DNA from: an uncultured Thermococci archaeon
Lineage (GTDB): Archaea; Methanobacteriota_B; Thermococci; Methanofastidiosales; B48-G16
Direction: 5' to 3'
Length of the DNA stretch: 64,000 bases
NCBI GenBank assembly: GCA_964595645.1
Contig: CAZQQT010000002.1
Location: forward strand, 165,309 to 229,308
In this document: positions 39,400 through 54,206 of the stretch, in pieces
Numbering within the stretch: position 1 is the first letter of the stretch
Layout: each line of letters begins with the position of its first letter
Translations under genes and position numbers: made by a program
Notes under the pieces: model-generated
The model's input: the letters and a program-made list of their open reading frames with translations, nothing else
Told to the model about the DNA's origin: nothing
Databases searched by the model: none

Positions 39400-40380
39400 A
39401 TGGAGTACACAATCGGAACCATTGGGAGCCATTCGGCGCTGAACATACTCAACGGTGCGAAGGAAGAAGGATTCGAGACGCTTCTTCTTTGCGAAAAAGG
39501 AAGACGATTTTACGAGCGATTTCACGTTGCAGATGAGATATTTTACCTCGACAACCTCGAGGAGATACGAACAATGCAGGAGGAGCTCATTGACAAGAAT
39601 GTGATACTGATTCCCCACGGGAGCTATATCTCCTATCTCCCACTGAATATCATTGAGCACGAGTTTAACGTCCCCATCTTTGGCAATAAGTTTCTCTTCC
39701 GGTGGGAATCGGACAGGGATCGTGAGCAGCAGTGGCTGGGGGATTCCGGAATACGAATTCCCAAAACGTTTGATATTGATGATGTTGATAGGGAGGTCAT
39801 CGTCAAACTTCATGGAGCGAAGGGAGGGAAGGGCTACTTTTTTGCGAAGAACAAGGAAGAGATTCAACGACGAGTGAAGAAAGGAGAAAAATATCAGATA
39901 CAGGAGTATGTGAAAGGAGTGGCAATGTACTTCCACTATTTCTACTCGCCACTGGAAGATGAGAATGTGTTGATGAGTATCGACAGGCGATACGAAAGCA
40001 ACGTGGACTTCTTGGGGAGAATGCCGCAGGGATTCAACGTTGAGCCAAGTTACGTGGTGGTAGGGAACTTCCCCATTGTTATCCGGGAATCGCTCCTGGA
40101 AAAGGTGTTTGATATTGGTGATAAGGCACTGAAACAGTCACAGACAATAGATGACCGGGGGCTGATCGGTCCGTACTGTCTCGAGACGATTGTGACGGAT
40201 GAGCTTGAGATCGTGACCTTTGAAATCTCGGCACGGATCGTAGCTGGTACCAACCCCTTCATTCCATACTCTCCCTACTCCTACATGAAGTACGGAAAAA
40301 AGATGAGCATGGGGAGAAGAATCGCTACGGAGATAAAACATGCCATAGAAGAGGACAGGTTAGAAGAGGTCCTGACATAA
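39400..40380 (+). CDS. purP: PurP-family formate-dependent FAICAR synthetase (ATP-grasp)
   Basis: GSHSAL, IPHGS, GAKGGKGYF, DRRYES, FEISARIVAGTN, MGRRIA. Confidence 0.88.
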   Translation: MEYTIGTIGSHSALNILNGAKEEGFETLLLCEKGRRFYERFHVADEIFYLDNLEEIRTMQEELIDKNVILIPHGSYISYLPLNIIEHEFNVPIFGNKFLFRWESDRDREQQWLGDSGIRIPKTFDIDDVDREVIVKLHGAKGGKGYFFAKNKEEIQRRVKKGEKYQIQEYVKGVAMYFHYFYSPLEDENVLMSIDRRYESNVDFLGRMPQGFNVEPSYVVVGNFPIVIRESLLEKVFDIGDKALKQSQTIDDRGLIGPYCLETIVTDELEIVTFEISARIVAGTNPFIPYSPYSYMKYGKKMSMGRRIATEIKHAIEEDRLEEVLT

Positions 40381-40827
40381 CACCGCAATTTCCTCCACAA
40401 TTTTTTCTCTATTTTCCTCAGTCACGGTAACAATTTTGTAGTTCTCTCTTTTTTTGACTACGTCCTCGAGGATATCTTCTCGCACAATTACCAGCGAGTC
40501 CTCTGTCAAATACTGGAAAATGTCGATAATCCCTCTCATCTCTAGATGGCCAATCTCGTCGTAGACAAGAATATCTCCTGTTCGTTGCAGTGCACGCTCC
40601 ACAAACTGGAGTGCCGCGGGATTGAAGTAATATCCCTTCACCTTGAACCCGATCTTCTCCTTCGATGCGAGCACTCGTTTCTCATGTGTCACGAGATCTT
40701 CAACAAAGTATCTTCCTCCCGATCGTTCACTTATCACACCGTAGATATCCTTCTCCAGCATCTCTACCACCGCACGCAGTACCGTTGTTTTGCCCACGCC
40801 AATAGCACCCGTGATGATGAGGATCAT
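40360..40827 (-). CDS. Small P-loop NTPase (NTPase_1/DUF2478-like)
   Basis: ITGAIGVGKTT, LVYDEIG.LE; ATGA-coupled to the EcfT gene. Confidence 0.85.
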   Translation of the reverse strand: MILIITGAIGVGKTTVLRAVVEMLEKDIYGVISERSGGRYFVEDLVTHEKRVLASKEKIGFKVKGYYFNPAALQFVERALQRTGDILVYDEIGHLEMRGIIDIFQYLTEDSLVIVREDILEDVVKKRENYKIVTVTEENREKIVEEIAVLCQDLF

Positions 40828-41498
40828 AGGAGGTACCTCCAGTACAGCGACACACCGAGAAGTACGCCTGCTATCACCGTGAGGAGGTAATCCTCCCGAT
40901 GAAATCCACTCTCCCGATAAAACGTTCTCTTTTTATAGAGTCCAAAACACCGACCTTCCATGGATTGAGTGAAGGAATCCGCCCGCTCCAGTGCTGAGTA
41001 GAGAAGAGGGAAAAAGGTATACCTCACGAAGTTGAAGACATTTTTTATCCCGTCGAGTTTCACACCTCGGGCTAACTGCGCTTTTCTGATGATATTGGAC
41101 TCCATGTCAAAGAGAGGGACTAACCTGAAGGTGAAGACGAGGGTGAAGGCGTATCGGTACGGCACGCCGATCCGCATTAACGAGTATGCGAATGTATTGG
41201 GATCGCTTTTCGCGAAAAGCATCCCTGAGAAGATGATTCCCAGAAATCTGAATACCATTCGTAGTGAGAATGCTAGTCGCTCCACAAGGCTTCCCTCTAG
41301 AAATATTACGTTGATGATCAGGATAAAAACTGCAAAGGAGAAGATGATCTTCCTCCTTGTCATTGCAGAAAATCCCAGACGCAGAGAAAAAATCACGAGG
41401 GAAATACCACATAAGAATGCGATTACCAGCACATTCTGGAACAGAAAGAGGAGAACACAGTATATAATAAGGAGGAAAAACTTTGTTAACGGGTTCAT
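40824..41498 (-). CDS. ecfT: ECF transporter T component
   Basis: NPLTK start; RLVP, AQLARG and SMEGR coupling motifs. Confidence 0.92.
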   Translation of the reverse strand: MNPLTKFFLLIIYCVLLFLFQNVLVIAFLCGISLVIFSLRLGFSAMTRRKIIFSFAVFILIINVIFLEGSLVERLAFSLRMVFRFLGIIFSGMLFAKSDPNTFAYSLMRIGVPYRYAFTLVFTFRLVPLFDMESNIIRKAQLARGVKLDGIKNVFNFVRYTFFPLLYSALERADSFTQSMEGRCFGLYKKRTFYRESGFHREDYLLTVIAGVLLGVSLYWRYLL

Positions 41499-42832
41499 CC
41501 CGATTCCTCCAGGAGTACGCCATCCTCCAACCGTAAAACACGGGAACAGTAGGTTTCGGCAATTCTGCGGTCGTGAATTACCATGATAATCAGATTGTTG
41601 TTCTCGAGTAGCATGTCCATGATCCTCTTGACATTTTCGTGATCTTGGCCAATGAATGGTTCATCCATAAGAATGATCGTTGGATCGTAGGAGAGGATAG
41701 AGACGATATTCAGCCTCCTTTTCTCTCCGTAACTGAGGTGAAAGGGATTTCTTTCACTGTATTGTTGTAACCCACTTCTCTCCAAGAAGGGATCCACGCT
41801 GCCTTCCATCTCAAAGTTGATGAGTGCGAACGCCGCTTCTTCCTGTACAGATGACTCGAATATTTGGTGGTTGGGATTCTGGAATACAAATCCAATGTCT
41901 CGTGCGAGTTCTGATGTCTTTTTTTCAGTGATTTTCTTTCCTCGGAGACGAATTTCCCCAGAGTACTCAAGATAGTTCATCAGTGACATGAGAAGCGTTG
42001 TTTTTCCGCTCCCGTTTCTCCCCATGATCCCGATGACCTCATTGTGGTACGCATTAAAGGATATCCCGTCGAGAACCTTTTTTTTACCGTACGACACGTG
42101 AAGATTGTCTACCTCAAGGATTTTTTCTCCCTTCTCTCTTCGCTTCGTCGTGTACTGAGGATGCTGGAGACTGTCAACGAGGTGGAGGGTACCATTCTTC
42201 AATGTTGCTATCTTGGTGACCTTGTCAAGGAGGTACTCCCATTTATGTTCGATCACAATCACTGCGATATCCGCCTTTTTCTGTATTTTCTCGATCACGT
42301 TGAATATCTCCTCCGTGACCACAGGATCGAGGTTGCTCGTCGGTTCATCGAAGATAATCACCTCAGGTTTCATGGCAAGAATCGATGCGATCACAATCTT
42401 CTGCTTCTCCCCACCGGAGAGCGAGAACGTATCCCGTTCCCGCAGATGCTCTGCATCCACGATACTCAGTGCCCAGTCTATCCGAGTCTCCATTTCTTCT
42501 TTGTCAAGACACATATTTTCTAGGGCAAAACTGAGTTCATCTATCACATTCAGCGTACAAATCTGATTTTCAGGGTCCTGCTGCACTACCCCCACGTCTT
42601 TGGCGAGATCGAAGAGCTCGTACTCCTCGATATTTTTTCCTTTAAAAAAAATATTTCCTTTCTTTTCTCCTTTTCCTTTTAAAAATCCAGAAATGGCGAG
42701 GGCAAGCGTTGATTTTCCACTTCCACTTTCTCCTGCGAGCAGGATAAAATCTCCTTTCTCTATATGCAGCGAGATATCCTTCAACACCCACTCCTTCTCA
42801 TACCGAAAACTGAAGTTCTCCAGTCTGATCAT
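41495..42832 (-). CDS. ecfA: Fused double ECF ATPase (EcfA-A')
   Basis: Two Walker A motifs (GESGSGKST, GRNGSGKTT); QDPENQI and QNPNHQI; LSGGEKQ and LSYGEKRR. Confidence 0.93.
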   Translation of the reverse strand: MIRLENFSFRYEKEWVLKDISLHIEKGDFILLAGESGSGKSTLALAISGFLKGKGEKKGNIFFKGKNIEEYELFDLAKDVGVVQQDPENQICTLNVIDELSFALENMCLDKEEMETRIDWALSIVDAEHLRERDTFSLSGGEKQKIVIASILAMKPEVIIFDEPTSNLDPVVTEEIFNVIEKIQKKADIAVIVIEHKWEYLLDKVTKIATLKNGTLHLVDSLQHPQYTTKRREKGEKILEVDNLHVSYGKKKVLDGISFNAYHNEVIGIMGRNGSGKTTLLMSLMNYLEYSGEIRLRGKKITEKKTSELARDIGFVFQNPNHQIFESSVQEEAAFALINFEMEGSVDPFLERSGLQQYSERNPFHLSYGEKRRLNIVSILSYDPTIILMDEPFIGQDHENVKRIMDMLLENNNLIIMVIHDRRIAETYCSRVLRLEDGVLLEESG

Positions 42833-43788
42833 GCGATCCGTATCTCCGCGACATCACGAACCCAGTAGCCACCATCGAATCCCTTGGCGATCAGTCTTCT
42901 CTCCGCGGTGAGAATCATCTCATCGTGTATTTTTTCTATAGGGAAGGTTACAGTGTAGCCGTCGTCTCCTACCACCTCTACCTCTTCTCCCTGCGGTTCT
43001 GCCCTTTCCACAATGATCGTGAATGGAATACCTCGGTACTCTTTTTCTTCTTCGTATTGGTACTGTCCTACCATCTCTGCAGCCACTGTTTTCTCGTACA
43101 CACTGAATTCATTGTAATTAAAGCTGTAGGCATTGTTGCAGTCTCCCAAGACAGCGATCGCTTCTCCTGAGGTGTAAATGGCAGCGTAGTAGTAAATTCC
43201 ACCGAAGAGGAGTACGGTTGCAGCACCGATCGTTGCAGCTTTTTTAAGACTGTACCGTTTCTCCTTTCCCTCCAGCACCTCCAGTACATTGTGCGAGAAG
43301 TATCCTGCAAAGAGTACTCCGGAGAAAAAGGCAATACACGAGATGATAAAGAAGAAGGTTGTTGCATTATAGGGGGCATAAAAGAGCTGAAATATAAATA
43401 CATTTGTTCCTGTGGCAATCCCTCCAGCGAGAAGATAGGTGAGGAAGTGCCGTTTTCTTAGTGTGAGAAAGACGAGATCGACCAAAAGCCCTTGGGTACC
43501 ACTTAAGACCAACACGAAGATACCGAGTTTCCCCCCAGAGAAAAGCTCGACAAAGGCCTTCAGTATCCCGATCATGAGACCAGTACCTCTCTTTCGGGTG
43601 AGGCCGTAGCCTAAGGTGATCCAGAAGATGTGGAGTCCGGCGAGGAACTGTCCGGCACCGAACGGGACACCCAGAAACCTGTTTACCAGGTTCGCTAAGT
43701 AGCCGATGTATGTGGAGGATATCCCTCCGAGTGCAGAGAGTATCGCAATCACCACGAGATCCTTCGTTTCAAAGTAGTATTTACCCAT
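42829..43788 (-). CDS. ECF S-component (YkoE/ThiV-like) fused to a C-terminal molybdopterin-binding-fold domain
   Basis: F.TKDLVVIAILSAL.G and TRKRGTG..G....VE motifs, then an extra TM and EYRGIP...V.V.GDDGY...RLI...YWVRDV.EI. Confidence 0.8.
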   Translation of the reverse strand: MGKYYFETKDLVVIAILSALGGISSTYIGYLANLVNRFLGVPFGAGQFLAGLHIFWITLGYGLTRKRGTGLMIGILKAFVELFSGGKLGIFVLVLSGTQGLLVDLVFLTLRKRHFLTYLLAGGIATGTNVFIFQLFYAPYNATTFFFIISCIAFFSGVLFAGYFSHNVLEVLEGKEKRYSLKKAATIGAATVLLFGGIYYYAAIYTSGEAIAVLGDCNNAYSFNYNEFSVYEKTVAAEMVGQYQYEEEKEYRGIPFTIIVERAEPQGEEVEVVGDDGYTVTFPIEKIHDEMILTAERRLIAKGFDGGYWVRDVAEIRIA

Positions 43789-44707
43789 CTTCACACCTCA
43801 CGACAGCTACATCCACTGTGTCGTCCACCGTAACCTTTACGTAGTGATAGAACCCATCGGCTAATAGCGGTGCACCGGCACCACCGGAGATGACATATGT
43901 TGTATTGTCGTCTTTCTTTTTATAGGGGGAGTGGATATGACCACAGAATACGTAGTCGACATGGTTGTCCTGCACGATTGCTCTAAACGCTTCTCCATCG
44001 ATCATGGTGCTGGTACCGCCAGGCCGTGGATCGAAGGGCGGCATATGCATGAAGATGAAGACATGATTGCGCTCTTTCTGGAGTGTTGTACGAAGAAACT
44101 CCAGCTGCTCCGCATCCAGGAATCCTGTGGCGTTGTCGAGCACAACGAAAAGAGAGGATCCGTAGGTGAAGGAGTAGTATCGCGGACCGAGGTACTGCTC
44201 ATACAGATCGGGATCGTCCATGATATCGTGATTTCCACGGACAAAGAAGAGAGGAGCATGAAGATTGTTTGCTGTATTGAGAAATGCAGTAAAGTTAGCA
44301 GTACTCGCTTCACAGACAAAATCTCCTCCACCTACCACGAATAACGGATTGTCGTCGTTGATCTTCTCAATCATCGTATGAAATACCTGCGTCTGCTGTG
44401 CTCCCGATTCTGGTTGACTGTCGCTGAAAAATACAAACGTATAGCTCTCACGTGTGTCAGGATCCAGCTGCACGTGTTCTTTTTCAAAAGGGCCGAGAGT
44501 GAAATGGAGTTCTTTGTGAAAGTTGGGAAGTACAAAGTCACGGGTTGTGGGTAGTAACGAGTAGTTGGTGATGGTGATGGAGGGATAGAGCCCTGTGGCG
44601 AAGATTCTCTGGTTCTCCTGTGTCCCCTCCGTTACATCAATGGTAGTTTTGGGGATGAGGAGGAGACAGAGAATGCCAATGATCGCCAATAGTATATATT
44701 TCTTCAT
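43781..44707 (-). CDS. Secreted/anchored calcineurin-like metallophosphoesterase
   Basis: Signal/anchor MKKYILLAIIG; FSDSQ, GGDFV, GNHD, FMHMPP, GHIH. Confidence 0.9.
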   Translation of the reverse strand: MKKYILLAIIGILCLLLIPKTTIDVTEGTQENQRIFATGLYPSITITNYSLLPTTRDFVLPNFHKELHFTLGPFEKEHVQLDPDTRESYTFVFFSDSQPESGAQQTQVFHTMIEKINDDNPLFVVGGGDFVCEASTANFTAFLNTANNLHAPLFFVRGNHDIMDDPDLYEQYLGPRYYSFTYGSSLFVVLDNATGFLDAEQLEFLRTTLQKERNHVFIFMHMPPFDPRPGGTSTMIDGEAFRAIVQDNHVDYVFCGHIHSPYKKKDDNTTYVISGGAGAPLLADGFYHYVKVTVDDTVDVAVVRCEDG

Positions 44708-44739
44708 CGATATGTTTCTTCGAACATAACGTTTATAAA
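44706..44739. promoter_or_regulatory. ModE-like operator palindrome abutting a shared bidirectional TATA box
   Basis: ATCGATATGTT-TCTTCG-AACATAACGTT (44706-44733), then TTTATAAA (44732-44739). Confidence 0.65.
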
Positions 44740-44769
44740 GGTTTTGTGTGTCACTGCAGTAGTGATACC

Positions 44770-45570
44770 ATGAAGACAAGATACCAACTACTAATTGGCG
44801 TACTTGCAGTATCCCTTCTTGTGGGATGCGTGACCGAGGAGAAAGAAACACCGACGTACACTGTTGAAATCTCAGGACTGAAAGAGGGAGAACTCGCACT
44901 GAGTGAATTGCGCTCGATGCCCTCTGAGGAGTTTACCGCAACGCTCGTGAAATCTACGGGAACAGAGATAGAAAACTCATGGAAGGGGGTGCTTCTCTCT
45001 GATGTCCTCGATACCTATGACGTCGCTCCGGATTACGTTACCTTTGTCGCGAAGGACGGCTATATGTCGACGATGGAATGGAGCGATCTGACCAACGCGT
45101 ACCTCTGCTATGAAATGGACGAGGAAGAGATTACCCAGGAAGATGGTGGACCAGTACGACTTGTGATTCCGGATCAACCGGGAAAACTCTGGTTAAAGTA
45201 TTTGAAGGAGATAAAACTCCTCGGGAAGGAGAACTCGCTGGTAATCAACGGAAAAACAAAGGTTACCCTGGTACTCCCACCGGAGGATCTCACCGGTCTT
45301 TTCGATCAGAAAACGGTCACTGCGGAGTATAAAGGTGAGGAGAGTACCTTTGAAGGAGTCCCGTTGGTCGCATTATTGAATAGAGCACGGTACGAAGACG
45401 ATGCCGCGAAGGTTAAATTTACCGCTGCAGATGGCTATACAGTCGAACTGGAGTTCAGCGAGGTCTATTCAAACGAGGATATCCTCGTGACAGAGGATTT
45501 CAGACTGATCATGCCAGGCTACGAATCGAAGTACTGGATGAAGGATTTGCGGGAGATAGACGTACTATGA
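44770..45570 (+). CDS. Lipoprotein with two molybdopterin-binding-fold (Oxidored_molyb-like) domains
   Basis: Lipobox LLVGC; WKGVLLSDVL, F.AKDGY, DGGPVRLVIP, WLKYL; second copy FEGVPL, AADGY, RLIMPG, YWMKDL. Confidence 0.82.
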   Translation: MKTRYQLLIGVLAVSLLVGCVTEEKETPTYTVEISGLKEGELALSELRSMPSEEFTATLVKSTGTEIENSWKGVLLSDVLDTYDVAPDYVTFVAKDGYMSTMEWSDLTNAYLCYEMDEEEITQEDGGPVRLVIPDQPGKLWLKYLKEIKLLGKENSLVINGKTKVTLVLPPEDLTGLFDQKTVTAEYKGEESTFEGVPLVALLNRARYEDDAAKVKFTAADGYTVELEFSEVYSNEDILVTEDFRLIMPGYESKYWMKDLREIDVL

Positions 45571-46295
45571 AGAAGTTTATCTCCATTTTTTTATTATTTC
45601 TCCTATTAGGATGTATACAGGGAGAAAAGACTGCAACGTGGAAAATTCACGTGATCGAGAACGATGTGACGGAGTATTCACTCTCAGCACTGAAAGAGTT
45701 CGAGACTGAGACGATCCACGAGACGGTGGTGGGAAAGGAGGTTCGAAAGATACCGTGGGAAGGGGTGCCATCGACCGCGCTCGGTGACGGCGAGATCATC
45801 AATTATATCTCCGAGGATCGATATCTAGTGAGTATTCCCAGTACTGTGGATGTCATCCTCGCGTATAAAAAAGAGGGAGATTCTATCCCAAAAGAGGATG
45901 GGGGGCCGCTGAAGATTACGGCAGACCCGCAGTATGGCTGCAAATGTAACTGGCTGAAGTACCTCAAAATCGTTGAATTTGTGGATAGGGAAAACACGAT
46001 ATCGATCTATGGAGAGGTCACGAATATTCTCTACTTTTCGCCACGAGATCTCAATATCTTCTACTCGCTGGACGCCTTGCTGGAAGATCGGTACCATCGG
46101 GCCGCGATCACGAAAATCCTCGACAAAGCGATATGCAAACCGAATGCCAAAACCGTGACATTCGTCACAGGAGACAGAAGGGAAACATTCGACCTATCGA
46201 CGATACGAGAAGAGAACCCTGAGATTGTCTACAATCAAGGGTTTGCTATCCCCTCGTTGGGTCTGAGCGATGTGAGATCGATTGTGATAGGGTAG
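45567..46295 (+). CDS. Lipoprotein with a molybdopterin-binding-fold domain plus a degenerate second copy
   Basis: Lipobox LLLGC; WEGVP, ISEDRY, ILAY, DGGPLKI, GCKCNWLKYL; ATGA overlap with 44770. Confidence 0.78.
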   Translation: MKKFISIFLLFLLLGCIQGEKTATWKIHVIENDVTEYSLSALKEFETETIHETVVGKEVRKIPWEGVPSTALGDGEIINYISEDRYLVSIPSTVDVILAYKKEGDSIPKEDGGPLKITADPQYGCKCNWLKYLKIVEFVDRENTISIYGEVTNILYFSPRDLNIFYSLDALLEDRYHRAAITKILDKAICKPNAKTVTFVTGDRRETFDLSTIREENPEIVYNQGFAIPSLGLSDVRSIVIG

Positions 46296-47090
46296 TTACC
46301 ATCCCAGTGTGACGTCAAAATCGAACTCATTGAGCACATGTTGCATCCTCTTTTTCAGTAGTAGCAGATATTTTTCGTTGTCTTTTATTTTTTTGTAGCT
46401 TTTCACGGTGTCCACATCCAAATATTTCTTCATTCGATGCCAGACATTCTGATAGAGATTCATTTTGTCGATATAGAGGCGCGTCACGCCCCGCTCTGCA
46501 AATGCTGTGAACGCTGCTCGTATTTTTTCCTCAGTATCAGAGAACATCGGGATCACAGGACCGAAAAACACGTAGCAGTCCTCTATCTCCTCGAGAATAT
46601 TCAACCGTTCTTCAACCGATGACGCGCCTGGCTCAAACTGTTGTCGTATGTCTTCTTCAACTGTGGTGAAGGTGACTCCCACCTCGGCATCTACCCTCTC
46701 CAGCAATGTTCTGTCTCTGAGGACGAGATCGGACTTTGTGAGGATGCTGATGGGAACATCGTATCGGGAGAGCACCTGTAAGCACTTCTTCGTTATCTCA
46801 TATTTTCTTTCCAACGGTTGATAAGGGTCCGTGACCGAGGAGATGAGAATGCTTCCTTCTGGAGATTTTTTCATCTGTTTGGCGAGGACTCGGGGAGCGT
46901 TCACCTTTACGTCCACAAACTCCCCCCATGCTTCTTTGTGGTTTGCGAACTTCTTCATGAACACAGCGTAGCAGTAGATGCATCCATGCTGGCATCCCAT
47001 GTACGGGTTTACTGCGTAGTCTATCCCGTAGATACCAGATTTTGAGAGGATAGATTTACAGTAGATCTCGTTTATTTGCACATGGTACAA
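46296..47090 (-). CDS. Radical SAM protein, spore-photoproduct-lyase-like
   Basis: NPYMGCQHGCIYCYA, SSVTDPYQP.E, ILTKS, FEPGA. Confidence 0.9.
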   Translation of the reverse strand: MYHVQINEIYCKSILSKSGIYGIDYAVNPYMGCQHGCIYCYAVFMKKFANHKEAWGEFVDVKVNAPRVLAKQMKKSPEGSILISSVTDPYQPLERKYEITKKCLQVLSRYDVPISILTKSDLVLRDRTLLERVDAEVGVTFTTVEEDIRQQFEPGASSVEERLNILEEIEDCYVFFGPVIPMFSDTEEKIRAAFTAFAERGVTRLYIDKMNLYQNVWHRMKKYLDVDTVKSYKKIKDNEKYLLLLKKRMQHVLNEFDFDVTLGW

Positions 47091-51356: not shown

Positions 51357-54206
51357 CTAACCAATTTCCCATACAACATCGGTATACGCATAGATCCAGT
51401 ACCCTCGTCCGGTCTCAAAGTTCTGGAACTGTTGTTCCCCTTCACAGTCATGCCACTGGTATTCTTGCAATGTGGGATTGTACCGGTAGATCCACGAGTT
51501 GAAGTCCGGATCGGTCAGTGTAGCGACCGCATCATCTACATCCTGATCCTCCAAAGGCCACCCTATAAGATTCCACCCATCTTTTAAGGGTATCTCTGTG
51601 ATATCCCGTCGCACCCCGGTGATCTCCCATACAACATCGGTATACGCATAGATCCAGTACCCTCGTCCGGTCTCAAAGTTCTGGAACTGTTGTTCCCCTT
51701 CACAGTCATGCCACTGGTATTCTTGCAATGTGGGATTGTACCGGTAGATCCACGAGTTGAAGTCCGGATCGGTCAGTGTAGCGACCGCATCATCTACATC
51801 CTGATCCTCCAACGGCCACCCTATAAGATTCCATCCTTCTTTTAATGGAATTTCCATTGTTGTTTCTATTGCAAATGAGAAGCACTCTCCACCGTTATTA
51901 TCCTTTCGCGTGACGTCGCCTGTCGATTCAACCTCAAAATAGTATCTTCCCGATGCGAGCTCGGGCAGCGTGATCGCATGAGCTGTCACCAGCGTTGCAT
52001 TAGTTTCTTCGGTCATATTCCCTATCTCACCATATCGCACTGTACTATTGCTCGCGAAGTCCGTATCCCACGTGATTGTCGTCGCGTTCCCATCAACAGT
52101 TGCTTGGACATTTTTTATTCCATCAATGGTGAAATTCGCGTCAGAGAAAGGTCCCCACTCTCCCGTTGAGGCACGCACGTGCACGGTCTGTTCCCCGTCG
52201 TACAGTCCATCGAGAGGAATCGTACCGTTGAGATCTTCCACTGTTGAGTCAAAGGATCCGTCCTTTGCGAAGAGCGGAATTGGATCTCCTGCGAGATCGA
52301 GATAACATTCTGCATCCACAATCGTGGAGTTATTGGACTCTGCAGTGCATGCAATTGTCGGATCGAGGTAACAGGGATCAGGAGCAATGGTGATATTTGA
52401 GATAATAGGATCGGGGACAAGGGGCGTTTCTACCGAGAGTGATGGATCGCCATAGAGGTTAAACCCAAAGAGGTTCTGCCATCCATGCCAGCCAAATGGG
52501 TTGGTGAGCGCGTTCTTTCCGTCGTACAGCGCTTTTCCTGCTGACTCTCCGTTGTTAACGAGATGATCGATGTAGGCGTACCCGATACATGCATTATCTG
52601 TTATCCCGTTATTGTCCCAGGTCCCCAGTAAGTACCAGCTGCTTCGCGAGGCGCTTACCGTCCCAATTGCCCCCACCTTCAGCAAGGTATATCCTAGATT
52701 GTTCGGATCTTCGGGATATCCATTGAGACAAGATGCGTGGTAGGTAAACGTCTCTGTATTTGGTACGGTATCAGAGGAGGAGATAAAGGATGGAGTTATC
52801 ATTTCAGAACTTTCAGGTACTCCATTCTCATTATTATCAGCATTCCAGTACTTTCGTGCTGCCACTGTGTTATTTCCGTGACCATACCACAATACGATCC
52901 CATAATCATTTCCCCACTGGCTGAGAAGCGTGGATTTTGTGAGTGGTGCGTCATATCCATAGGCTCCCGTTGGGACAGGCTCGAGACCGGATCTCTCGTA
53001 CATCACGTAGTTACCGTAGCCATTCGGATTCGCGATGTTCGTGATTACTTCTTCAGGTAAATTCAGGCCGTCTGTCCTTTCATGCCCACTGTGATCTTCA
53101 TTTTGGTAGTTCAAAATTGCCATCGGGAGCATGATCTTCTTTGCCACACCATCGTAGTTAATGAATTTATCCAGAATAGTATCTAATGTGGTGTAATCTG
53201 ATCCGTACACGGGCACTCGTCCCACGTACACCTCAGGACCGAAGTCAACACCAGTGTCCTGTCCATACTCACCATAGTGTCCATCACCGTCCGAGTCCCA
53301 ATTTCCTGTGAGATCGGCGTAGAAGTAGTCGGTTGGAGTACGGTCTGCGGTACTCCCGGGATTGGGCCAACACATCATCATCGGTACGTCACCTGTGGGT
53401 GCGGGATCTCCAATTAACAGCACGTACTGCGCCTGTAAACTGCTGTAGTTGTTACTCAGCCAGTTTCGGATGTTCACAGCGCGTTGCTGTCCCGTCACAG
53501 TCCCGTACTCTGTTTCTGTGATTGTCGTGACGGTGAACCCTCTATTCTGGAGGAAAGTGATGAATTCGTTCAATTTTGCACTATTGTTCACTACCGCATT
53601 TGTGGTAACAATCACGTATCCCCCATCTGCTGATGGCGTTATTTGTTCGACGGTATCCCCTGCCCCCCACGAGATCTCAACGGTCACCTTCTCGGTCACG
53701 TGGAGCGCTCCTGTTACTGGGTTGTACCGGATCGGCGTAAATTGAACTCTGACAAATTTTGAATCTCGTATCTGATACGTTCTCAGTTTTTCCACAGGTG
53801 AACCAGGATAAAACGTCTCTTTTTCGTAAATACTGATATCTTTCCCATTTTTTATGGTGTCACTATCGTATGTCTTTCCATTGGAGGAATCTGTCGCAAT
53901 CAGGGGCATGGGCTTGATCTCATAGTTCCCATAGATCATCTCTGTACTCTGCTTCACGACGTGTATCTGTACTGTTTCTAGATCTGCGTCGGCGGGAAGA
54001 GCGATATCGTACGTATTCTGCGGTAGCGAAGGAGCTCCAGGTGCGCCACGAGTATAAAAGCCCTCCATTTGGATTGTACCATTTTCGATCGTGTAATTGT
54101 TGCAGGTGAGAATGACGTTCTGCGTTCTCTCGCTATTCTGCCCACCAATCACTGAAAAAATAGATAGTACCATGATGGAACAGAGTATCAGTGCTTTCAC
54201 TTTCAT
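51357..54206 (-). CDS. Secreted C25 (gingipain-family) cysteine peptidase
   Basis: Propeptide PGAPSLP, YVLLIGD, TDYFYADL, VGRVP; dyad GHG and SCLNG; NLYGDP; FN3-like domain; two GWNLIG repeats. Confidence 0.9.
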   Translation of the reverse strand: MKVKALILCSIMVLSIFSVIGGQNSERTQNVILTCNNYTIENGTIQMEGFYTRGAPGAPSLPQNTYDIALPADADLETVQIHVVKQSTEMIYGNYEIKPMPLIATDSSNGKTYDSDTIKNGKDISIYEKETFYPGSPVEKLRTYQIRDSKFVRVQFTPIRYNPVTGALHVTEKVTVEISWGAGDTVEQITPSADGGYVIVTTNAVVNNSAKLNEFITFLQNRGFTVTTITETEYGTVTGQQRAVNIRNWLSNNYSSLQAQYVLLIGDPAPTGDVPMMMCWPNPGSTADRTPTDYFYADLTGNWDSDGDGHYGEYGQDTGVDFGPEVYVGRVPVYGSDYTTLDTILDKFINYDGVAKKIMLPMAILNYQNEDHSGHERTDGLNLPEEVITNIANPNGYGNYVMYERSGLEPVPTGAYGYDAPLTKSTLLSQWGNDYGIVLWYGHGNNTVAARKYWNADNNENGVPESSEMITPSFISSSDTVPNTETFTYHASCLNGYPEDPNNLGYTLLKVGAIGTVSASRSSWYLLGTWDNNGITDNACIGYAYIDHLVNNGESAGKALYDGKNALTNPFGWHGWQNLFGFNLYGDPSLSVETPLVPDPIISNITIAPDPCYLDPTIACTAESNNSTIVDAECYLDLAGDPIPLFAKDGSFDSTVEDLNGTIPLDGLYDGEQTVHVRASTGEWGPFSDANFTIDGIKNVQATVDGNATTITWDTDFASNSTVRYGEIGNMTEETNATLVTAHAITLPELASGRYYFEVESTGDVTRKDNNGGECFSFAIETTMEIPLKEGWNLIGWPLEDQDVDDAVATLTDPDFNSWIYRYNPTLQEYQWHDCEGEQQFQNFETGRGYWIYAYTDVVWEITGVRRDITEIPLKDGWNLIGWPLEDQDVDDAVATLTDPDFNSWIYRYNPTLQEYQWHDCEGEQQFQNFETGRGYWIYAYTDVVWEIG
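51367..51833. repeat. Near-identical direct repeat, 258-bp period (about 51367-51575 and 51625-51833)
   Basis: One mismatch seen in about 209 bp; encodes two 86-aa GWNLIGWP modules. Confidence 0.9.

Follow-up and report, generated by a model that had tools for sequence, protein, structure and literature searches.

A candidate energy-coupling factor importer of preformed molybdenum/tungsten-pterin cofactor in an archaeon of the Methanofastidiosales

We analyzed a 64,000-nucleotide stretch of DNA (the window; contig CAZQQT010000002.1, positions 165,309 to 229,308) from an uncultured archaeon of the Methanofastidiosales, in which seven genes at 40360-46295 encode an energy-coupling factor (ECF) transporter together with surface proteins carrying a pterin-binding fold. 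Judging from its sequence and modeled structures, the locus probably encodes a dedicated group I ECF importer of preformed molybdenum/tungsten (Mo/W)-pterin cofactor, likely metal-loaded, which would feed enzymes of the aldehyde:ferredoxin oxidoreductase (AOR) family. Import of such a cofactor had been proposed in the original prediction for this DNA, all of whose computable checks turned out in its favour, and the claim was supported by the fold of the encoded proteins, by their regulation and by a comparison with loss of the moa and moe synthesis genes across 34 genomes of the same order and 49 genomes of a second archaeal order around CP070736 (record CP070736.1). Loci and genomes outside the window are cited below by L and G numbers.

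Gene content and binding folds of the module

All seven open reading frames (ORFs) were present at the positions first given, and domains were assigned with Pfam and NCBIfam profiles. The predicted arrangement of two overlapping-gene operons diverging from a 62-bp spacer was borne out by ORF positions and profile matches, with five minus-strand and two plus-strand genes around the spacer (44708-44769) and overlaps of 4-14 nt between adjacent genes. The features are as follows.

40360..40827, minus strand: P-loop NTPase (NTPase_1/THEP1-like), predicted cytoplasmic (PF03266, E 4e-16)
40824..41498, minus strand: EcfT transmembrane coupling subunit (CbiQ/EcfT; PF02361, E 3e-18)
41495..42832, minus strand: EcfA-EcfA' fused ATPase (two ABC_tran domains; TIGR04520/04521 top matches)
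42829..43794, minus strand: YkoE-type S component with one additional transmembrane helix and a predicted outward Cys-less domain of sulfite oxidase (SUOX)/PruR fold (PF09819, E 1e-20)
about 42829-43176, minus strand: the fused C-terminal SUOX/PruR-fold domain of the S component (profile match; structure model)
43781..44707, minus strand: calcineurin-like metallophosphoesterase, predicted membrane-anchored, 308 aa, ATG at 44707 (PF00149, E 2e-17)
44708..44731, no strand assigned: ModE-type operator CGATATGT-N8-ACATAACG (match to a published motif; conserved in relatives)
44732-44739, no strand assigned: TATA-like box TTTATAAA, abutting the operator (from sequence)
44770..45570, plus strand: LipoA lipoprotein, lipobox Cys20, two tandem SUOX/PruR-fold domains (PF00174, E 1.6e-29)
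45567..46295, plus strand: LipoB lipoprotein, lipobox Cys16, one clear and one degenerate pterin-fold domain (PF00174, E 2.2e-8)

As in group I ECF transporters, the S component, the T component and two ATPase domains are co-encoded, and this gene order is kept in homologous loci; by gene content and predicted fold the module is a member of that class. Close homologues of the module proteins were found in Theionarchaea, Methanofastidiosum and related metagenome-assembled genomes (MAGs), in keeping with a place of the genome in the Methanofastidiosales, and the divergent arrangement is kept across them.

Three of the seven proteins had been predicted to hold four or five copies of the pterin-fold domain. 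Four copies were detected by hidden Markov model (two in LipoA, one in LipoB and one at the C-terminus of the S component), and the fifth, the degenerate C-terminal half of LipoB, was detected solely by BLAST against LipoA. The GGP.RL signature ascribed to these copies was present in the first domains of LipoA and LipoB and missing from the remaining domains. The structure model of LipoA (pLDDT, the predicted local distance difference test score, of 89) contained two tandem domains, the first of which superposed on SoxC, SorA, PruR and YedY with Z scores of 13.6-17.6 and a root-mean-square deviation (rmsd) of about 2 A, against a background of Z <=5.3 for unrelated folds. The domain models matched the SUOX/PruR fold with Z 16-17.6 and an rmsd of about 2 A; the original prediction had called for a SUOX fold.

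The Mo-ligating Cys was absent from all four clear domains; on alignment with the YuiH-like protein of the same genome, Lys61 of LipoA occupied the position of this Cys and LipoB had no Cys there. The predicted pocket residues of LipoA (Tyr98/Trp141 and Tyr223/Trp256) are conserved, and Tyr and Trp were kept at the PruR pterin-sandwich positions in 4/4 clear domains, PruR Y104/W160 being mapped by motif and not by residue-level superposition. PruR receptors hold their pterin between these two residues and bind neopterin and monapterin (PMC11194511). LipoB carries in addition a C125-x-C127-N-W129 motif beside the pocket Trp, which was invariant across 15 homologues down to 23% identity. Distant homologues variously have up to ten repeats of the pterin-fold domain, place it on SLH or Ig anchors, or join it with the phosphoesterase or a FecB-type binding protein. 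Because they are Cys-less, repeated, and fused to the S component and the phosphoesterase, we infer that these domains are binding modules and not enzymes.

The membrane part of the S-component model matched the six-helix fold of YkoE (5edl; E 3e-6, TM-score 0.75 by target) and its C-terminal part matched PruR/SorA; the match to the YkoE profile gave E 2e-16. In YkoE, Glu77 and Gln95 read the aminopyrimidine of thiamine, and both are retained here, Glu77 as Glu in 40/40 homologues and Gln95 as Gln or Glu (mostly Gln). The other residues of the thiamine pocket were replaced in all 40, Trp49 by His (40/40), Tyr46 by Ala or Ser and Asp131 by Gln (40/40). Such a pattern would fit a different ligand with an aminopyrimidine edge, for example a pterin. 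Outside the window (L036:6974-8094; G000:C2 about 104973-106093) lies another S-component-like gene (PF07155) and, after it, the gene of one Cys-less PF00174 protein; no clear ModE box was seen upstream, and the pair may possibly encode a second pterin importer sharing the ECF unit.

The metallophosphoesterase has an N-terminal hydrophobic helix (residues 5-23) and intact metal motifs (D96, GD129, GNH160, H221, H257/H259); no solved structural relative was found at E<0.001. In the second archaeal order the enzyme carries a fused pterin-fold domain, and in L070 it is replaced by a protein of alkaline-phosphatase fold; two loci (L009, L083) have no such gene, so the module does not strictly depend on it. 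The NTPase belongs to the module in family f1, Theionarchaea, Thermococcus and the bacterial locus L068. In Methanofastidiosum, the second archaeal order and bacteria, a conserved Bud32/APH-like kinase is encoded next to the module. Within the window's own order this kinase was present in 4/4 carriers without a module NTPase, in 0/9 other carriers (three of whose loci stop at contig edges before the NTPase position) and in 0/21 non-carriers. The mutual exclusion of the two enzymes suggests trimming of the substrate outside the cell and rephosphorylation inside. In G024 the kinase gene lies directly upstream of a modE-like gene (L119:6063-7048), at a distance from the ECF and LipoA genes, which are scattered in that genome.

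Cofactor demand, regulation and distribution

The window's own genome (G000; 99.96% complete, 14 contigs) contains nine AOR-family loci, seven of them single ORFs, several with intact cofactor and Fe-S motifs. The remaining two are each split into two overlapping ORFs (G000:C5:128929-130714, C8:101197-103339), by frameshift, decay or assembly error. A YuiH/MsrP-like PF00174 protein fused to DUF4405, with the Mo-ligand Cys kept (L035:7769-8764 = G000:C1:67768-68763), is likely a second cofactor user in this genome without the synthesis pathway, and the sole PF00384 protein lies in a Nuo/Nfn-like operon (G000:C5:136761-139001).

A profile search of this genome gave no match to Mob_synth_C, MoaC, MoaE, MoeA_N or MoCF_biosynth, for which 11-13 of 14 control genomes scored. 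When the wtpABC-moeA-moaADECB-moeA cluster of a relative was used in tblastn, no wtpA, wtpB, moeA1/2 or moaB/C/D/E was found, and the moaA-like match was an unrelated SPASM protein (91 bits against a cut-off of 325). WtpA, ModA and TupA were likewise not found in this genome; the only ModA/TupA-family match (SBP_bac_11/PBP_like_2) was PstS in a pst operon. A simple motif search, which is a weak test, gave no MobA- or MobB-like ORF. Since metal importer and insertase are both missing, finished cofactor would be the simplest supply.

The ModE-like operator claimed for the spacer was confirmed. The sequence CGATATGT-N8-ACATAACG is one mismatch from the site RTTATGT-N8-RCATAAY of M. acetivorans, which was demonstrated by electrophoretic mobility shift assay (PMC12327845). 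A match of this quality is expected by chance 0.14 times in the window and was reached in 5/100 shuffles, so the match alone is modest evidence and its strength lies in conservation. No other site in the genome came within 1 mismatch of the motif, a reversed-pattern control gave no genome site, and at 2 mismatches the motif was not above chance. Relatives have the motif in front of wtpA/modA, the moa-moe cluster, AOR operons and a FecB-DUF364 operon, and homologous modules, among them those of the second archaeal order, also carry it upstream. A perfect ModE box was also seen in L063 (G026:C21) before a gene pair read from sequence as a FecB-type binding protein and DUF364. The sole ModE-like ORF of the window's genome is a 114-aa helix-turn-helix protein (83 bits, below the TIGR00637 cut-off) with no Mop/TOBE domain.

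Bacterial copies of the module have MobB and a TOBE gene beside them, and the molybdenum cofactor (Moco) riboswitch RF01055 was found inside or ahead of the homologous clusters L068, L070, L072 and L076. Eight homologous loci showed Moco riboswitches only, and none for thiamine pyrophosphate (TPP), B12 or folate. Two unrelated Mo/W control systems, ModE box and Moco riboswitch, thus mark the same module, and the homologous loci track Mo/W regulators and not thiamine or B12 riboswitches.

The distribution of the module was compared with that of the synthesis genes, moaA and moaE being searched genome-wide in the window's own genome only and the other genomes scored by moaC and moeA. AORs were present in all 83 genomes (34/34 and 49/49). 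Both moeA and moaC were missing from 12/34 genomes of the order, and the S-component fusion was found in 11/12 moeA-less genomes compared with 2/22 moeA-positive genomes (Fisher P 3e-6). An RpoB tree placed at least three separate losses, in family f1, in three Theionarchaea-type genomes and within a Methanofastidiosum-type genus. In the second archaeal order the S component was present in 26/27 moeA-less compared with 4/22 moeA-positive genomes (Fisher P 1e-8). Carriers without moaC and moeA keep their AORs in two archaeal orders, in agreement with what had been predicted. One of the four moeA-positive carriers (G159, a single contig) has an in-frame deletion after which 64 codons from the start of moaA run straight into the final 48 codons of moaC; moaE is gone, while moaB and moeA remain (L118:8500-10520), and this looks like pathway decay in an importer carrier.

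Proposed pathway and alternative readings

In the pathway that we propose, LipoA and LipoB at the cell surface would bind the pterin ring of released cofactor in their Tyr/Trp cleft and shield it from oxidation, with the LipoB CxC pair perhaps holding the metal or keeping the dithiolene reduced. The phosphoesterase would remove the nucleotide of the guanine or cytosine dinucleotide forms (MGD, MCD) of molybdopterin (MPT), and possibly the terminal phosphate too. The fused domain would hand the cofactor to the S component, which EcfT and EcfAA' would turn over, and if the cofactor had been dephosphorylated the NTPase (the Bud32/APH-like kinase in other carriers) would restore its phosphate; the NTPase may instead serve some other step in handling the cofactor. 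The ModE-like helix-turn-helix protein would repress both promoters. These roles in capture, shielding, trimming and transport are our reading of the domain content.

Published chemistry bears on the trimming step. Extracted bis-MGD survives 90 min anoxically, and a phosphodiesterase turns it into bis-MPT, which loads the AOR-family protein YdhV while bis-MGD itself does not; the dephospho form binds YdhV four-fold less, that is, a quarter as well (PMC9103625). Nucleotide trimming and rephosphorylation are accordingly both plausible, and the phosphoesterase may serve either the first alone or dephosphorylation followed by rephosphorylation. As to the form imported, we lean towards the metal-loaded cofactor, and consider metal-free MPT or another late pterin form unlikely.

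Several observations weigh against import of the cofactor as set out here. The main difficulty is size, as bis-MPT, with two pterins and a metal, is large for an S-component pocket; the PruR cleft was described as too short for Moco, and the solved Cys-less relatives bind small non-Moco pterins (PMC11194511). Arrays of the pterin fold are co-transcribed with wtpA-type binding-protein/permease genes in L020:5672-8940 and L071:3855-7637. In Thermococcus onnurineus, T. sp. 21S7 and T. paralvinellae (L011/L021, L022, L023) the LipoA-LipoB pair lies beside a FecBCD-type ABC transporter, with DUF364 and NTPase genes in two of the three, no ECF genes within the fetched stretch, and, in L021, a binding protein fused to a PF00174 domain; possibly this is a second transporter type for the same substrate. 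Two moeA-less genomes are without the module (G008, which is 87% complete in 310 contigs, and G172), and carriers which keep synthesis genes include G013 and G024, with moeA present in both Bacillota tested. Many vitamin producers retain importers too. The Fisher values are overstated since the genomes are related, the synthesis genes form one cluster so that their losses are not mutually independent, and most of the compared genomes are MAGs.

The co-transcription with wtpA-type genes would also suit metal scavenging, in which the surface domains bind cofactor or metal chelates and release tungstate or molybdate, which the ECF unit then takes up, standing in for WtpABC. Metal uptake is the chief target of ModE boxes and Moco riboswitches, and the window's genome is without WtpA, ModA and TupA. 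The metal would, however, be useless without MoaA/C/E and MoeA, all absent from this genome; moreover, the S component belongs to the vitamin (YkoE) type and has retained the Glu/Gln that read the aminopyrimidine, and the module is best predicted by loss of pterin synthesis. We regard scavenging as improbable.

Slightly less probable still is an importer of another vitamin or pterin, either thiamine/hydroxymethylpyrimidine (HMP) as for YkoEDC or a folate/methanopterin-type compound like the PruR ligands, with a coincidental Mo/W link. The closest solved S component is indeed the thiamine-binding YkoE, homologues are annotated as thiamin/HMP permease in their source records, and PruR binds neopterin/monapterin (PMC11194511). 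Against this, the replacement of Trp49, Tyr46 and Asp131 in 40/40 homologues, the exclusive occurrence of Moco riboswitches in the eight homologous loci and the anticorrelation with moeA/moaC in two orders all point away from such a ligand.

It could be argued that the AORs obtain their cofactor from an unrecognised, non-homologous synthesis route, or do without it, and that the module imports a precursor; the synthesis genes were searched for by homology, and two of the nine AOR loci are split. We give this little credence, as seven AORs are each encoded by one long ORF, with cofactor and Fe-S motifs intact in several, and 39/39 moeA-less genomes retain AORs; we know of no alternative pathway for Mo/W-pterin synthesis. 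Least probable of all, LipoA and LipoB would be extracellular Moco-dependent oxidoreductases (MsrP/YuiH-like, as they are annotated) unrelated to the importer substrate, in line with the PF00174 and SorA/SoxC matches and with a conserved LipoB CxC that could ligate metal. This reading is opposed by the Mo-ligand Cys being Lys in LipoA and absent in the others while the genome's own YuiH-like protein keeps it. It is also opposed by the occurrence of the domain in fusions with the S component and the phosphoesterase, and in as many as ten copies in surface proteins, as binding modules would show.

Significance and comparison with known systems

Uptake of ready-made Mo/W-pterin cofactor is something prokaryotes were thought not to do. 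A 2021 review gave C. elegans as the sole known case of Moco uptake, all other organisms having to synthesise it (PMC9026282), and our literature search, which left most subscription papers outside its reach, found neither a prokaryotic Moco importer nor a description of this module. If import is correct, Mo/W-pterin would be a further cofactor, next to B12 and thiamine, that is cross-fed in anoxic communities. This would account for sediment and digester archaea that operate numerous tungsten enzymes yet lack the pathway, and it could provide a growth factor that uncultured lineages have been missing. The module would also be a first transporter for this cofactor, with binding proteins that may serve to stabilise so labile a molecule, and perhaps with a molybdopterin kinase. 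The broader proposal, that whole archaeal lineages are W/Mo-pterin auxotrophs living on their neighbours' cofactor through surface capture, trimming, metal-loaded ECF import and rephosphorylation by an undescribed molybdopterin kinase, with two unrelated enzyme families in that slot, is a real possibility for which we stop just short of even confidence. New here are the Methanofastidiosales case with its tree, the second archaeal order, the ModE-box evidence, the exclusivity of NTPase and kinase, and the LipoB CxC motif.

On its flanks the module is bordered by two convergent genes, purP on the NTPase side (window 39400-40380, sharing 21 nt with the end of the NTPase gene) and a PA0069-like radical SAM gene on the other (window 46296-47090); these flanks vary in other families and so are not part of the module. 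Further along, window 51357-54206 encodes a 949-aa protein that looks secreted and has two near-identical repeats of ~80 aa at its end; it may be a gingipain-type peptidase.

The system would work like a group I ECF vitamin importer under riboswitch or repressor control, and it belongs to none of the YkoE, SUOX-enzyme and PruR-DcpA groups. It resembles YkoEDC of B. subtilis (YkoE 5EDL; PMC5037267) in having a dedicated S component, T component and fused AA' in one operon, in the PF09819 fold with Glu77 and mostly Gln95 kept, and in the soluble binding partner sometimes present there (YkoF). It differs in the replaced Trp49, Tyr46 and Asp131, in the additional transmembrane helix and fused outward pterin-fold domain, in the added surface lipoproteins, phosphoesterase and NTPase or kinase, and in a ModE box or Moco riboswitch in place of the THI box.

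In structure the single domains are most like PruR (7kos, 7kou, 7kom, 7kp2, 7rkb), likewise an extracytoplasmic Cys-less SUOX fold of ~120-130 aa (Z 15.5-16.7) with conserved Tyr/Trp. PruR, however, has Pro-Trp at the Cys site where Lys-Ser-Thr-Gly is found here, and it binds non-Moco pterins and signals to DcpA, whereas the present module has no DcpA-type gene, has ECF neighbours, and carries its domains in tandem, lipid-anchored or fused to the transporter. The sulfite oxidase family (SorA, SoxC, MsrP/YedY, YuiH) shares the Moco-binding fold (Z up to 17.6, rmsd 1.7-2.0 A), but the module domains are without the Mo-ligating Cys and without dimerisation or partner domains, and are repeated.

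With WtpABC/ModABC/TupABC and the ModE regulon (PMC12327845) the module shares its operator, and in non-producers it takes the place that the wtp-moa-moe cluster otherwise has behind that operator; it is an ECF system and not a binding-protein ABC transporter, and the local ModE is an HTH-only protein of 114 aa with no Mop domain. Dietary Moco uptake by C. elegans (PMC9026282) is alike in using cofactor made by other organisms, although in an animal whose transporter is unknown and with no homology claimed.

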